Assembly (NCBI RefSeq): GCF_003334385.1
Contig: NZ_QOWN01000007.1
Length of the DNA stretch: 64,000 nt
Source: Escherichia coli
GTDB taxonomy: Bacteria > Pseudomonadota > Gammaproteobacteria > Enterobacterales > Enterobacteriaceae
Direction: 5' to 3' (one strand)
In this document: positions 48,001 to 54,000 of the stretch, piece by piece
Position numbering within the stretch: the first letter of the stretch is position 1
How the letters are laid out: the number at the start of each line of letters is the position of its first letter
Program-made: the position numbers

Positions 48001-51000
48001 ATCATAATCCTGGTCGTTACGGGCGAGTTTTTCCATCTTTTGGATGTTTTTTCAGCGTTTTCTGTTGGCTCGATTCATCAGAAAAAATGTTAGCGCGGTC
48101 AAGTTTTCACCGCAAAGGTATTTAAAAGGTATTATTAAGTGGTATTGTCATCGCGTACCTTACATTACCTGTCATGAAGGAATTAAAAGATGAAAACAAC
48201 AGCAAAGCTGTCGTTCATGATGTTTGTTGAATGGTTTATCTGGGGCGCGTGGTTTGTGCCATTGTGGTTGTGGTTAAGTAAAAGCGGTTTTAGTGCCGGA
48301 GAAATTGGCTGGTCGTATGCCTGTACCGCCATTGCGGCGATCCTGTCGCCAATTCTGGTTGGCTCCATCACTGACCGCTTTTTCTCGGCGCAAAAAGTGC
48401 TGGCGGTATTGATGTTCGCAGGCGCGCTGCTGATGTATTTCGCTGCGCAACAGACCACTTTTGCCGGGTTCTTTCCGTTACTGCTGGCTTACTCTCTAAC
48501 CTATATGCCGACCATTGCGCTGACTAACAGCATCGCTTTTGCCAACGTGCCGGATGTGGAGCGTGATTTCCCGCGCATTCGTGTGATGGGCACTATCGGC
48601 TGGATTGCCTCCGGTCTGGCATGTGGTTTCTTGCCGCAAATACTGGGGTATGCCGATATCTCACCGACTAACATCCCGCTGCTGATTACCGCCGGAAGTT
48701 CTGCTCTGCTCGGTGTGTTTGCGTTTTTCCTGCCCGACACGCCACCAAAAAGCACCGGCAAAATGGATATTAAAGTCATGCTCGGCCTGGATGCGCTGAT
48801 CCTGCTGCGCGATAAAAACTTCCTCGTCTTTTTCTTCTGTTCATTCCTGTTTGCGATGCCACTGGCGTTCTATTACATCTTTGCCAACGGTTATCTGACC
48901 GAAGTCGGCATGAAAAATGCCACCGGCTGGATGACGCTCGGCCAGTTCTCTGAAATATTCTTTATGCTGGCATTACCGTTTTTCACTAAACGCTTTGGTA
49001 TCAAAAAGGTATTATTGCTTGGTCTGGTCACCGCTGCGATCCGCTATGGCTTCTTTATTTACGGTAGTGCGGATGAATATTTCACCTACGCGTTACTGTT
49101 CCTCGGTATTTTGCTTCACGGCGTAAGTTACGATTTTTACTACGTTACCGCTTACATCTATGTCGATAAAAAAGCCCCCGTGCATATGCGTACCGCCGCG
49201 CAGGGGCTGATCACGCTCTGCTGCCAGGGCTTCGGCAGTTTGCTCGGCTATCGTCTTGGCGGTGTGATGATGGAAAAGATGTTCGCTTATCAGGAACCGG
49301 TAAACGGACTGACTTTCAACTGGTCCGGGATGTGGACTTTTGGCGCGGTGATGATTGCCATTATCGCCGTGCTGTTCATGATTTTTTTCCGCGAATCCGA
49401 CAACGAAATTACGGCTATCAAGGTCGATGATCGCGATATTGCGTTGACACAAGGGGAAGTTAAATGAAAACAGAACGTATTCTCGGTGCTCTTTATGGGC
49501 AGGCGTTAGGGGATGCGATGGGGATGCCCTCCGAGCTTTGGCCACGCAGCCGCGTTAAAGCACACTTTGGCTGGATTGACCGTTTTCTTCCTGGACCAAA
49601 GGAGAATAACGCGGCCTGTTATTTTAACCGCGCCGAATTCACCGACGATACCTCGATGGCGCTGTGTCTGGCGGATGCGTTACTGGAACGTGAAGGCAAG
49701 ATCGATCCGAATCTGATTGGGCGTAATATTCTCGACTGGGCGCTGCGTTTCGACGCCTTTAACAAAAACGTACTTGGTCCGACCTCGAAGATTGCGCTTA
49801 ACGCCATTCGCGACGGTAAACCCATTGCTGAACTGGAAAACAACGGCGTGACCAACGGCGCAGCGATGCGCGTCTCGCCATTAGGTTGTTTGCTTCCGGC
49901 GCACGATGTTGATTCCTTTATTGATGATGTGGCGCTGGCGTCCAGCCCGACCCATAAATCCGATCTGGCGATTGCAGGCGCGGTAGTCATCGCATGGGCG
50001 ATTTCTCGTGCCATTGACGGAGAAAGCTGGTCAGCGATTGTAGATTCACTGCCTTCAATTGCGCGACATGCACAGCAAAAACGCATCACTACCTTCAGCG
50101 CCTCACTGGCAGCACGTCTGGAGATTGCGCTGAAAATTGTGCGCAATGCCGACGGCACCGAATCCGCCAGCGAACAGCTTTACCAGGTCGTTGGCGCAGG
50201 TACCAGCACTATTGAGTCCGTTCCGTGCGCCATTGCGCTGGTTGAACTGGCACAAACCGACCCGAATCGCTGCGCCGTCCTGTGCGCTAACCTTGGCGGC
50301 GACACAGACACCATCGGCGCTATGGCGACGGCGATTTGCGGCGCGTTGCATGGCGTTAACGCTATCGATCCTGCATTAAAGGCGGAACTGGATGCGGTAA
50401 ATCAGCTTGATTTCAACCGCTATGCCACAGCGCTGGCGAAATATCGTCAACAACGGGAGGCGGTATGAGCGGCGCTCGATTACACACGCTGCTGCCTGAA
50501 TTAACCTCGCGTCAGCCGGTGATGGTCGTCGGCGCGGCGGTCATTGATGTGATCGCCGACGCTTATGCCCTCCCCTGGCGTGGGTGCGATATCGAACTGA
50601 AGCAGCAGAGCGTTAACGTTGGCGGCTGCGCACTGAATATTGCCGTGGCGTTAAAGCGCCTCGGCATCGAAGCGGGTAATGCCTTGCCGCTCGGTCAGGG
50701 CGTGTGGGCGGAGATTATTCGCAACCGGATGGCGAAAGAGGGGTTAATCAGCCTGATCGATAACGCCGAAGGCGATAACGGCTGGTGTCTGGCGCTGGTT
50801 GAGCCGGATGGCGAACGCACTTTTATGTCATTCAGCGGTGTGGAAAATCAGTGGAATCGCCAGTGGCTGGCGCGATTAACCGTTGCGCCTGGCAGCCTGC
50901 TCTATTTTTCCGGTTATCAACTGGCCTCGCCCTGCGGCGAATTGTTAGTGGAATGGCTGGAAAAGCTGCAAGACGTGACGCCGTTTATCGATTTTGGCCC

Positions 51001-54000
51001 ACGTATCGGCGATATCCCGGACGCATTACTGGCGCGGATCATGGCCTGTCGACCTTTAGTATCACTCAATCGTCAAGAGGCTGAGATTGCCGCCGAACGT
51101 TTTGCTTTATCCGCAGAGATAACAACACTTGGCAAGCAATGGCAGGAGAAATCTGCCGCGCCGTTGATCGTTCGTCTCGATAAAGAGGGTGCATGGTATT
51201 TCAGCAACGACGCTTCTGGCTGCATTCCGGCATTTCCAACGCAAGTTGTAGACACCATTGGGGCGGGCGACAGTCATGCAGGTGGCGTACTTGCCGGGCT
51301 GGCCTCTGGTCTGCCACTGGCGGATGCCGTATTACTGGGCAATGCAGTGGCGTCGTGGGTTGTCGGGCATCGGGGCGGTGATTGTGCGCCAACGCGCGAG
51401 GAACTACTCCTCGCACACAAAAACGTATAGATCGCTGCGACAGTGGCTAATGCTGTACTCAATAGGCCGTTGCTGTTGGTCAAGCGCCACTTGCTTGATC
51501 ACCAGCACCGGTATTTTGCTATCTAACTGAATATGTGACTGAAACTCGGCATCCGGCATCCGGGCGCTAACGCGGGAACGTGTACGTTGTGGGTAAATGT
51601 GCTGGCTGCGGAAATAGTCATAAAGTGAAATCCCGATGGCATCAACATCATGAATTAAATGCGCCGGAACCCACGATTCCTCAATCGATACCGCTTCTTC
51701 ATCGACATAGCGAATACGCTTAAGCAAAAAGACATCACTTCCTGCTTCGACCGCCAGCTGCTGCGCGACTTCTTCGGGACATTTCACGACACGCTTGTTA
51801 ACCCATAGCGTATCGGGCTTTTTCCCGCGCAATACCACCTGCTGAGAAAAACCTCGCGCTTCTTTCAACGAGTATTCGAAGATGTTGTTGATCTGCGTGC
51901 CGTAACCGCGCGAACGCGTCACCACACCCTCTTCTTCCAGCGCCTGCATCGCCTTGCGCACCGTAATGCGCGAAACGCCGGTTAACTGACTTAAATCACG
52001 CTCACCGGGCAAAATATTGCCATGCTCCAGCACCCCGCTGCGCACGGCATTTTTTACCGTTTCGGCAAACTTAATATAAAGCGGCGTGTTATCCGCAGCT
52101 AAAATACGCTCGTTCAGTTGGGCAATCAGCTGGGTATGCGCTTGTTCCATTTGTCTTTTTCCTGCCAGGGAGTCTGGTGGGAGTATATCACTGCTTCTTA
52201 TTTAAGGCGTTTCTTTAATCCCATCAACGAATCCCTGCAACTCCTCCACCGTGCCATTAAACACATTAAAATCCACCGGACCATTGATGCCATCTACCTG
52301 TCCACGGTCGGAATGCTGCCAGAAGCGCCAGGCCATTCCGTCATTGTCCGGACGACGTTGATAATAGTGAGCCACCCACCACGGATATTCATTAAAATAG
52401 CCCGCCAGATTCGTGTGATAAAAAACGGCTCCTGAGTAAATAATCGGCTTTTTTCCCGTGCGTTTTTCTACCATTTTTAGCCACTGACTTACCCGCTTGC
52501 GTAATTCTTTTGCCGATAATTTTCCCCGTTCTTCTACGTCCAGCACGGCAGGGAAATCGCCTTGTGAGAAATCCACCGTTTGCAGAAATAATCGCGCCTG
52601 AACTGAAGCGGATACCGACGGGGAGAAATAATGATACGCCCCACGCAGCATGCCATTTTCGCGGCTTAGTTGCCAGTTACGCGAAAAATAGGGGTCCACC
52701 AGCTTTTCGCCTTCCGTCGCCTTAATAAAAGCAAACTGTAAGCGGATACCGTTGTCGCGCATTTTTGCCACCCGCTGCCAGTCGATCCGCTCCTGCCAGC
52801 GCGAAACATCTATTCCGTGAATGGTATAACTGGCAGGAATGCGAATTGCGAAAGATTTAACCGGGCGATAACCGTAGAAGTGGATGTAGTCTTTAATCTG
52901 AACTGCTGTCGAATAGAAAAAATTCACCGTCTGACGCGGATAAATTGCAATGATGGAAATTAGCCCAAGAACGCATAATAAAGCGGTGAATTTTTTTCGA
53001 CTGGTGATTCTCAGCTGCATTGGTTTCATCCCTGAATGTCAGTGCCAAAGACTGACAATAACCAAAGCAGCTATAGTACGGTGCTCACCACCAGGCGTGG
53101 AAGTGGTGAACCGGACCAATACCGTGACCAACTTCCAGCGTGTCGGCCTGGGCTAACGCCGATGAAAGCCAGCTTTTTGCCTCCTGTACGGTGTCAGCCC
53201 AGTTTGTATGGCGCGGGCGTAGTGCAGCCAACGCCGCAGAGAGTGTACAACCAGTGCCGTGGGTGTTTTTGGTCATAATGCGCGGTGCGGTAAACCGTTG
53301 TTCACCCTCGCGAGTAAACAGCCAGTCCGGGCTTTGCTCATCATCCAGATGACCACCTTTCATTAGCACTGCGCCACAGCCCATCGCCAACAGCGATCGC
53401 CCTTGTTCCAGCATTTCCTGTTCGTTGCGCGCGTGTGGCGCGTCGAGCAAGGCGGCAGCTTCGGGCAAGTTTGGCGTTATTAATGAAACCTGTGGCAATA
53501 ATCGACTGCGCAGCGTAGCAACCGCCGAAGGTGAAAGCAGCGGATCGCCGCTTTTTGCCAGCATAACAGTGTCGAGTACCACGTTTTGGATCTGATAACG
53601 TTGCAACCGTTCTGCCACCGCTTCAACAATATCGGTTTCCGCCAACATACCGATTTTAGTGGTATCGATTCGCACATCGCTGAACACCGAATCGAGCTGG
53701 GCGGCGACAAAATCAGGCTCAATGCGATACACCGACTGTACGCCACGGGTATTTTGCGCCACCAGTGCAGTAATAACTGAGCAACCATAAGCGCCAAGTG
53801 CCGAGAAGGTTTTAAGATCGGCCTGAATCCCCGCACCACCACTCGGATCAGTACCGGCAATCGTCAGAGCGTTAATTCGTTTCATGCCTGCACCTCCTGC
53901 GTCAATTGCCAGAGCGCATCAAGGAAATGTGGAACAAAACTGCCTGGCCCCTCGCTTCTGGCGACAGCGCGTTCTCCGGCTTGTTTCATCCAGTGACAGG

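Follow-up and report, generated by a model that had tools for sequence, protein, structure and literature searches.

We analysed a 64,000-nucleotide stretch of Escherichia coli DNA (contig NZ_QOWN01000007.1 of assembly GCF_003334385.1), hereafter the window, which carries the genes yegT, yegU and yegV and, facing them, the regulator gene yegW. A hydrolase of the ADP-ribosylglycohydrolase (ARH) fold and a PfkB-family kinase, the products of yegU and yegV, are the conserved core of a module whose transporter is interchangeable. Four transporter families, NHS, NCS1, PnuC and ABC, occur with the pair, and characterised relatives of these partners carry nucleosides, nucleobases or vitamins. Such a core with such transporters argues for a small-molecule route of riboside type and speaks against both a protein de-ADP-ribosylase and a glycogen-specific system. 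The module therefore probably serves the uptake and breakdown of riboside-type compounds.

The genes of the locus, as given by our list of open reading frames (ORFs), and the overlap between the last two are as follows:

48190-49467, + strand: yegT, 425 aa, major facilitator superfamily (MFS) transporter of the NHS family (nucleoside:H+ symporter type)
49464-50468, + strand: yegU, 334 aa, ARH-fold binuclear-metal hydrolase
50465-51430, + strand: yegV, 321 aa, PfkB-family kinase, non-canonical as a ribokinase
51404-52150, - strand: yegW (ggaR), 248 aa, GntR/HutC-type repressor of yegTUV with a winged helix-turn-helix (wHTH) and a UTRA domain
51404-51430, no strand assigned: convergent 3'-end overlap of yegV and yegW, 27 bp

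An original prediction for this DNA had placed the four genes at these same positions, exact to the base. It had also described yegTUV as translationally coupled, and both the yegT/yegU and the yegU/yegV junctions are indeed ATGA overlaps, with Shine-Dalgarno-like runs ahead of yegU (GGGGAAG) and yegV (GGGAGG). The convergent overlap that it reported is confirmed as well: the yegW stop (CTA on the + strand, 51404-51406) lies 27 bp within yegV, whose own TAG stop occupies 51428-51430. This 27-bp overlap is kept in Salmonella, Kluyvera and metagenome copies, and the corresponding overlap in a Pantoea-type cassette measures 14 bp. The yegV-yegW pair has been listed as an excludon from RNA-seq coverage (PMC12288877), and a Northern band of 3.3 kb, detected by probes for yegT and for yegV, bears out the co-transcription of yegTUV (PMC10819704). 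Several RefSeq E. coli chromosomes are 100% identical over the yegTUV-yegW DNA and use identical gene names in their annotation. Among 5426 complete E. coli genomes, 5425 contain the stretch; yegTUV-yegW is a core E. coli locus.

The locus, its operon structure, its regulator and the structure of YegT have already been published, so that the finding itself is already known. As the original prediction held, the literature names no substrate for YegT, YegU or YegV. No pathway has been assigned to these genes either, although a physiological link to glycogen has been proposed and YegW has been published as GgaR. Beyond this, our analysis contributes a candidate operator and a testable order of steps, and it identifies the module's conserved core together with the fusions and partner genes.

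A homologous-protein search returned only close orthologues among its top 120 matches, and the YegU-like family as a whole comprises 6840 cluster representatives at E<=1e-3. Near E. coli the surroundings are stable. We collected 80 enterobacterial loci, with their promoters, by a contig scan with a single protein (relatives all at least 77% identical), and in 67 of these 80 species loci the order fbaB / yegT yegU yegV / yegW thiD thiM is kept. The Pantoea-type cassette, whose YegU is 72% identical, has the same four genes and the convergent overlap between unrelated flanks, with no thi genes. Photobacterium damselae carries a GntR gene beside ARH-NCS1-PfkB, Pediococcus and Lentilactobacillus have ARH-NCS1-PfkB, and a gut contig shows ARH-PfkB-NCS1-DeoD; GntR-PfkB-ARH and ABC permeases-ARH-PfkB-ARH are further arrangements. 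The pair was present in every context examined separately (Photobacterium, Lactobacillaceae, Pantoea and an actinobacterium). In Arsenicicoccus the two domains are fused, next to an NCS1 gene, and 11 such ARH+PfkB fusions, in both domain orders, occur among the best 150 cluster representatives.

Scanning metagenomes with the family alignment gave 80 loci, 40 of which could be evaluated (30-66% identity to YegU, at least 1.5 kb of DNA on each side). A PfkB gene lies within 2.5 kb of the ARH gene in 31 of the 40. The transporter in those 31 loci is of the NCS1 family in 15, of the PnuC family in 7, NHS in 2 and ABC in 2, with 5 left unidentified. GntR/UTRA-like genes occur in 15 and isochorismatase-family genes in 5 of the evaluable loci. 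The PnuC-like proteins pass model TIGR01528 with 96-149 bits against a cutoff of 42.45, and a PnuC-family gene flanks the pair in nine metagenome loci overall, seven of them evaluable. For the NCS1 partners the nearest NCBIfam model is CytX, a putative hydroxymethylpyrimidine (HMP) transporter, which they match at 64-88 bits against a cutoff of 310. We found no functional assignment in the literature for ARH with PfkB, nor for ARH with PnuC or with nicotinamide mononucleotide (NMN) nucleosidase.

The individual neighbourhoods showed further regularities. On human-gut and other metagenome contigs, the PnuC gene stands directly after ARH-PfkB (L125, 9903-10586; L128, 9886-10584; L137, 2617-3309; likewise in L124, L126, L127, L129, L138 and L142). 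A second, larger ARH paralogue of 464-715 aa lies beside the YegU-like gene at L091 (1815-3209), L095 (1916-4063) and L150/L151 (about 6750-8990), and loci of this kind often include sugar-type ABC permeases. Several soil-type loci have a gene for an isochorismatase-family cysteine hydrolase directly beside ARH (L173, 7408-7974; L163, 4842-5423; also L157, L160, L168 and L175), and weaker relatives stand beside two NHS-type cassettes (L119, 5472-5969; L121, 5786-6301). The isochorismatase-family proteins match PF00857 at 3.7e-29 and keep the Asp and Cys motifs of cysteine hydrolases; when checked for the metal motif of nicotinamidases (DxH), they proved to lack it.

These last neighbours hint at an aglycone that bears an amide. 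Along with the PnuC and NCS1 partners, they make a pyridine or carboxamide riboside, such as nicotinamide riboside, one candidate substrate. Were it nicotinamide riboside, YegU would be the NMN nucleosidase, which we take to be a long-orphan activity. As the specific substrate, nicotinamide riboside was not retained: the amidases are devoid of the DxH motif and PnuC specificity cannot be read from the scores, which leaves it a candidate only.

The E. coli proteins themselves belong to the families that had been predicted for them, NHS, ARH, PfkB and GntR-HutC, as judged by their Pfam and TIGR profile matches. YegU matches PF03747 at 2.6e-66 and carries both ARH metal motifs (T-D-D-T and G-G-D-x-D-T), as expected of a family member; among 113 YegU-family members, at least 88% (mostly 92-99%) conserve T60-D61-D62-T63 and G278-G279-D280-x-D282-T283. 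Its scores of 80 bits against the DraG equivalog (cutoff 337.05) and 70 bits against that of Tri1 (cutoff 490) place it outside both. Among solved structures, the best relative is the uncharacterised MJ1187 (1t5j, 6.9e-30), with ARH3 next at 1.7e-15, and the PDB sequence search yielded no functionally characterised close relative. The context of YegU argues for a small-molecule metabolic role.

YegT matches PF03825 at 4e-184 over residues 1-405 and TIGR00889 with 654.9 bits against a cutoff of 446.1, and is thus a full-length member of the NHS family. A 2025 publication reports its crystal structure but no substrate (PMC11979927). The protein keeps the ribose-contact residues of NupG, whereas its base contacts are changed (PMC8042404), and uptake by YegT went undetected for uridine, cytidine, xanthosine and gemcitabine (PMC11241209). 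A transporter with intact ribose contacts and altered base contacts, which does not transport the standard pyrimidine nucleosides or xanthosine, supports the reading of the substrate as a riboside.

YegV matches PF00294 at 1.1e-55 and has the G53-G54, N-R-Q-E (NxxE) and G-A-G-D269 signatures of the PfkB family, yet it stays below the cutoff of every curated equivalog. With 84 bits against 299.65 for the ribokinase equivalog, it does not qualify as an RbsK. Residues D16 and N46 of RbsK are kept (D28 and N58 in YegV), N14 is replaced by V and K43 by C, and E143 corresponds to S or A, depending on the alignment; the RbsK reference sequence was entered by hand, and the same substitutions were seen against the PDB ribokinase 11bl. 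All of 15 ARH-partnered PfkB kinases have a hydrophobic residue in place of N14 and C, S, A or a gap in place of K43, and the same 15 retain the cis-diol Asp, GG, NxxE and GAGD. At two metagenome loci, L149 and L158, a canonical ribokinase (SLNxD, GGKGxNQ) is present besides the partner kinase. As late as 2025, YegV was given as an uncharacterised sugar kinase (bioRxiv 10.1101/2024.07.01.601547).

We propose that yegTUV may be a normally silent, GgaR-repressed and possibly CRP-assisted operon through which the cell takes up and degrades a non-canonical ribosyl compound, a riboside other than the four standard nucleosides. YegT would bring the riboside in by proton symport. YegV would then phosphorylate the 5'-OH of the ribose and so trap the compound in the cell, and YegU, with its two-metal ARH fold, would cut the C1'-aglycone bond of the 5'-phosphoriboside to release ribose-5-phosphate and the free aglycone. 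GgaR would occupy three GGTAT boxes and an inverted GTACC, and binding of a nucleotide-like ligand to its UTRA domain would release it from the DNA. We infer here that the substrate is a riboside, that the kinase acts before the hydrolase and which products are formed; in its full form, this order included, the model is tentative, its chances falling somewhat short of even.

The original prediction had seen in this locus a catabolic unit for a ribosylated compound in which hydrolysis precedes phosphorylation. The catabolic idea gains strength from a hydrolase and kinase pair that crosses phyla in the company of nucleoside- or vitamin-type transporters; the order is somewhat disfavoured and cannot be regarded as established. 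Loss of N14 and K43 in all 15 partner kinases, which nevertheless keep the catalytic motifs, leans towards a kinase that acts first. So does the canonical ribokinase that accompanies the partner kinase at two loci, and E. coli, too, already has RbsK. PnuC-family facilitators rely on phosphorylation of the imported molecule, and the nine loci in which they flank the pair point the same way. To our knowledge, in all characterised ARH substrates C5 of the cleaved ribose carries a phosphoryl group, a further reason to lean towards prior phosphorylation. Finally, PsuK/PsuG and Qng1 provide precedents for cleavage at the nucleotide level.

The closest parallel in pathway logic is pseudouridine catabolism in E. 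coli by PsuT-PsuK-PsuG (yeiM-yeiC-yeiN), where a nucleoside-type transporter is combined with a PfkB kinase that acts on the intact nucleoside and PsuG cleaves the 5'-phosphate form to ribose-5-phosphate and base, just as we propose for YegT, YegV and YegU. The resemblance is one of logic alone. PsuG belongs to the pseudouridine-5'-phosphate glycosidase family, not to ARH, and cuts a C-glycoside; PsuT is a CNT transporter and YegT an NHS transporter; and YegV scores 20 bits against a pseudouridine kinase model with a cutoff of 540. The PnuC/NadR system of nicotinamide riboside salvage and its counterparts PnuT, PnuX and PnuN are comparable in that phosphorylation drives facilitated uptake of a riboside or vitamin, and it is PnuC-family genes that directly follow ARH-PfkB in the nine loci above. 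They differ in several respects: E. coli uses YegT, an NHS-family protein, the NadR kinase is not a PfkB protein, and the Pnu systems have no hydrolase. A PfkB riboside kinase followed by an ARH-fold phosphoriboside N-glycosidase would be an undescribed two-step route and a new reaction class for the ARH family, which we regard as possible but doubtful.

Several observations weigh against the model. A substrate has been demonstrated for none of YegT, YegU and YegV. The ARH enzymes characterised so far cut, as far as we know, alpha-linked ribosyl bonds, whereas ordinary nucleosides are beta-linked. The Glu that aligns with the catalytic Glu of ARH3 (E41) is present in YegU, but 26% of the family have Gln there. 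The only experimentally identified ligand of GgaR is ADP-glucose, and a yegV deletion mutant scored as glycogen-deficient on ADP-glucose medium (PMC6195507); a riboside model accounts for both only indirectly. Non-ribose sugar kinases, too, typically lack N14 and K43, a loss that is not specific to nucleoside kinases. When the YegV-family profile was compared with solved structures, true ribokinases scored highest, at 134 bits, with nucleoside kinases at 77-97 bits, so that free ribose or a ribose-like sugar stays among the possible substrates of the kinase. Lastly, ribose-utilisation (rus) loci of Bacteroides, which are ribose-induced, contain ARH genes together with ribokinases (bioRxiv 10.1101/574913).

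The last two of these observations favour the same module run in reverse, in which YegU would release free ribose (or a modified pentose) and the aglycone, and YegV would phosphorylate the sugar. Such an order would resemble that of RbsK with the Rih/IUNH hydrolases, or that of the Bacteroides rus loci, some of which have ARH: ribose is released and then phosphorylated by a PfkB kinase. The retained equivalents of the cis-diol Asp, GG and N46 fit it, and the family nearest to YegV in the PDB is that of the ribokinases. YegV, however, is without N14 and K43, residues replaced in all 15 partner kinases examined, and fails the ribokinase models, and the IUNH fold is unlike that of YegU. The separate ribokinases of E. 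coli and of the two metagenome loci, the PnuC-type partners, which indicate that the imported molecule itself is phosphorylated, and the 5'-phosphorylated state of known ARH substrates also speak against it. Gene order and fusions are neutral on the order of steps. Overall, we consider the hydrolase-first variant unlikely, though far from negligible.

YegW has a GntR-type wHTH (PF00392 at 7.3e-16, residues 29-87) and a UTRA domain (PF07702 at 3.5e-36, residues 108-242), the architecture of the HutC subfamily of GntR proteins, with an N-terminal wHTH and a C-terminal effector domain. It was characterised in 2024 and renamed GgaR (Saito et al. 2024, PMC10819704). Chromatin immunoprecipitation with microarray (ChIP-chip) revealed the fbaB/yegT spacer as the only genomic target, together with a weaker site within yegT, and electrophoretic mobility shift assays (EMSA) confirmed binding at both (PMC10819704). 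The 3.3-kb transcript seen with the yegT and yegV probes appears only in the ggaR deletion strain, in which yegTUV mRNA rises about 30-fold (PMC10819704). ADP-glucose at 10-100 uM frees GgaR from DNA in vitro, whereas ADP and glucose do not, and these three compounds are the only effectors that were tried (PMC10819704). The deletion strain contains 2-3x the glycogen and grows poorly in M9 glucose; slower growth raises glycogen content, according to the introduction of the same paper (PMC10819704).

In the divergent fbaB/yegT spacer, which extends over 47934-48189 from the annotated fbaB start, and within yegT we found the following elements:

48106-48135, + strand: predicted sigma-70 promoter of yegTUV from a consensus scan only, with -35 TTCACC at 48106-48111, an 18-nt spacer and -10 TATTAT at 48130-48135
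48114-48159, + strand: candidate GgaR operator, with GGTAT at 48117, 48128 and 48141 and an inverted GTACC at 48155-48159
48997-49034, + strand: second operator-like copy inside yegT (ORF nt 808-845), weaker, 79% identical to the promoter copy
48088-48103, no strand assigned: CRP-like site TGTTAGCGCGGTCAAG in the fbaB/yegT spacer, 3 mismatches to TGTGA-N6-TCACA

A 38-nt direct repeat joins the promoter (48117-48154) to nt 808-845 of yegT (48997-49034). In the window, the pattern GGTAT-N6-GGTAT-N8-GGTA matches only at the promoter and at 48997, with 0.2 matches expected by chance; two matches were reached in 2 of 100 shuffles. Across 80 unique enterobacterial promoters the consensus AAAGGTATTTaAAAGGTATTATt.a.TGGTAt..T.a.ggcGTACC is near-invariant, while the bases between the boxes vary freely. 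As a repressor site should, the candidate operator spans the predicted -10 hexamer (TATTAT), and both it and the promoter fall within probe-2, the stronger GgaR-binding probe of the published study. The intragenic copy falls within probe-5 (yegT ORF nt 571-869), a fragment that GgaR bound only when more protein was added (PMC10819704). That paper defines no GgaR motif, and the words motif, consensus, palindrome and footprint are absent from its text (PMC10819704); the operator motif put forward here, a candidate read from the DNA, is new relative to it.

We did not retain the intragenic copy as a selected site. It is present in E. coli and fits the weak-binding probe, but shows no extra synonymous conservation across Enterobacterales, with a third-position entropy of 1.145 against a gene mean of 0.95. 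A GGTAT array is missing from the Photobacterium promoter, which shows that not all members of the regulator family share the operator motif. Like the HutC-subfamily repressors NagR, PhnF, TreR and HutC, GgaR combines wHTH and UTRA domains, its gene adjoins its sole target and its operator overlaps the promoter; it differs from them in its candidate operator, which consists of three direct GGTAT boxes and one inverted half-site instead of a simple palindrome, and in its reported ligand, ADP-glucose. YegW scores below the PhnF and HutC cutoffs. As for activation, the CRP-like TGTTA-N6-TCAAG has a core, TGttA-N4-G.TCAaa, that is conserved in the 80 enterobacterial promoters, and a CRP site found by systematic evolution of ligands by exponential enrichment (SELEX), written 'fbaB<CRP>yegT', lies in this spacer (PMC3105977) and is consistent with it. 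Measured from the transcription start that the -10 hexamer predicts, the centre of the CRP-like site lies about 46 bp upstream, an unusual distance. CRP possibly assists yegTUV.

The published work proposes instead a dedicated ADP-glucose or glycogen system, in which GgaR senses ADP-glucose, and YegT, YegU and YegV use or make it and so promote glycogen (Saito et al. 2024). The release of GgaR by ADP-glucose and the glycogen excess of the deletion strain both speak for this, and ADP-glucose uptake has been reported for NupC and NupG. So does the single screen hit with which the ADP-glucose link began: on ADP-glucose medium, 13 Keio mutants came out glycogen-deficient, the yegV deletion among them. 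Deletions of yegT or yegU did not turn up in that screen, and the yegV hit had no follow-up (PMC6195507). Among the effectors tried on GgaR there was neither ADP-ribose nor NAD, NMN or a riboside phosphate, and ADP-glucose may therefore be a mimic of the true nucleotide-like inducer. In ADP-glucose, moreover, the ADP sits on C1 of glucose, which is not the type of bond cut by ARH enzymes. The pair is widespread in taxa where it stands with NCS1, PnuC or ABC transporters, and glg genes were absent from the contexts annotated with Pfam or NCBIfam, while the reference set used for the metagenome loci held no glg proteins. The Keio yegV deletion reportedly retains only the last 21 nt of the gene. 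Given the 27-bp overlap, it should also hit the 3' end of yegW, removing the stop and the last codon of the regulator gene. Since slow growth alone raises glycogen, and a derepressed transporter, kinase and hydrolase would slow growth, 30-fold overexpression probably accounts, indirectly, for both the excess glycogen and the poor growth of the ggaR mutant. Thus, a dedicated glycogen system appears improbable to us.

Still less probable is that YegU is a true de-ADP-ribosylating enzyme like DraG, Tri1 or ARH3, acting on protein, nucleic acid or a small molecule, with YegT and YegV only loosely linked to it. YegU shares the PF03747 fold with these enzymes, its metal-binding TDDT and GGDxDT motifs and the catalytic Glu are intact, and the GgaR ligand ADP-glucose is an ADP-sugar. 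However, YegU lies far under the DraG and Tri1 cutoffs, as under that of every curated equivalog; yegU is translationally coupled to genes for a transporter and a kinase; PfkB fusions occur in both orders; and no ADP-ribosyltransferase was found in any examined context of the pair. In a pairwise alignment of ARH3 and YegU, the positions that presumably stack on adenine in ARH3 either fall in a 3-residue deletion or are non-aromatic in YegU, so that the adenine clamp is not conserved.

Salvage of a thiamine-related precursor is the least credible of the alternatives: the yegW-thiD-thiM adjacency in at least 67 of 80 enterobacterial loci, a TenA gene 1.1 kb downstream in Lentilactobacillus and CytX as the nearest model of the NCS1 partners would suit it, but ThiD, ThiM or TenA was near ARH in 0 of the 40 evaluable, divergent loci, Pantoea-type cassettes have another genomic location and no thi genes, the CytX scores fall far short of the cutoff, and we know of no ribosylated thiamine precursor. 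With thi genes near none of the 40 divergent loci, we rejected the thiamine link and treat the thiMD adjacency as lineage-specific synteny.

The genes around the locus deserve brief mention. On the - strand, thiM, thiD, yegX and yegW (51404-54801) run in the same direction, separated by only 51-55 bp and by no terminator-like site that we could find, and a thiamine pyrophosphate (TPP) riboswitch (54705-54801, - strand, 71 bits) precedes thiM; yegW could thus receive read-through from the thiamine-regulated thiMD transcript. The yegX gene (52202-53029), which encodes a GH25 lysozyme-like protein, stands between thiD and yegW only in Escherichia (3 of the 80 enterobacterial loci) and looks like a lineage-specific insertion. 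On the other side, next to fbaB (45550-46824 and upstream), a transporter gene of the RbtT/DalT/CsbX family of the MFS and an FGGY pentulose kinase gene form a locus of ribitol/arabitol type; K-12 presumably has the gat operon at this fbaB-adjacent position. The TenA gene of Lentilactobacillus raoultii (thiaminase II family; L096, 11365-12192), 1.1 kb downstream of ARH-NCS1-PfkB, was the only thiamine-related neighbour found outside Enterobacterales.

In conclusion, YegT, YegU and YegV are present in nearly every E. coli strain and are still among the K-12 proteins without a biochemical function. The pairing or fusion of the hydrolase with a dedicated kinase recurs in Proteobacteria, Lactobacillaceae and Actinomycetota and in gut and soil metagenomes. 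The identity of the substrate would name a widespread nutrient-scavenging route and would settle whether derepression causes the glycogen phenotype of ggaR mutants as a side effect or whether that phenotype is direct. It would also show the ARH fold serving ordinary small-molecule catabolism, and, should YegU prove to be a phosphoriboside glycosidase, this would be a new class of activity for that fold.

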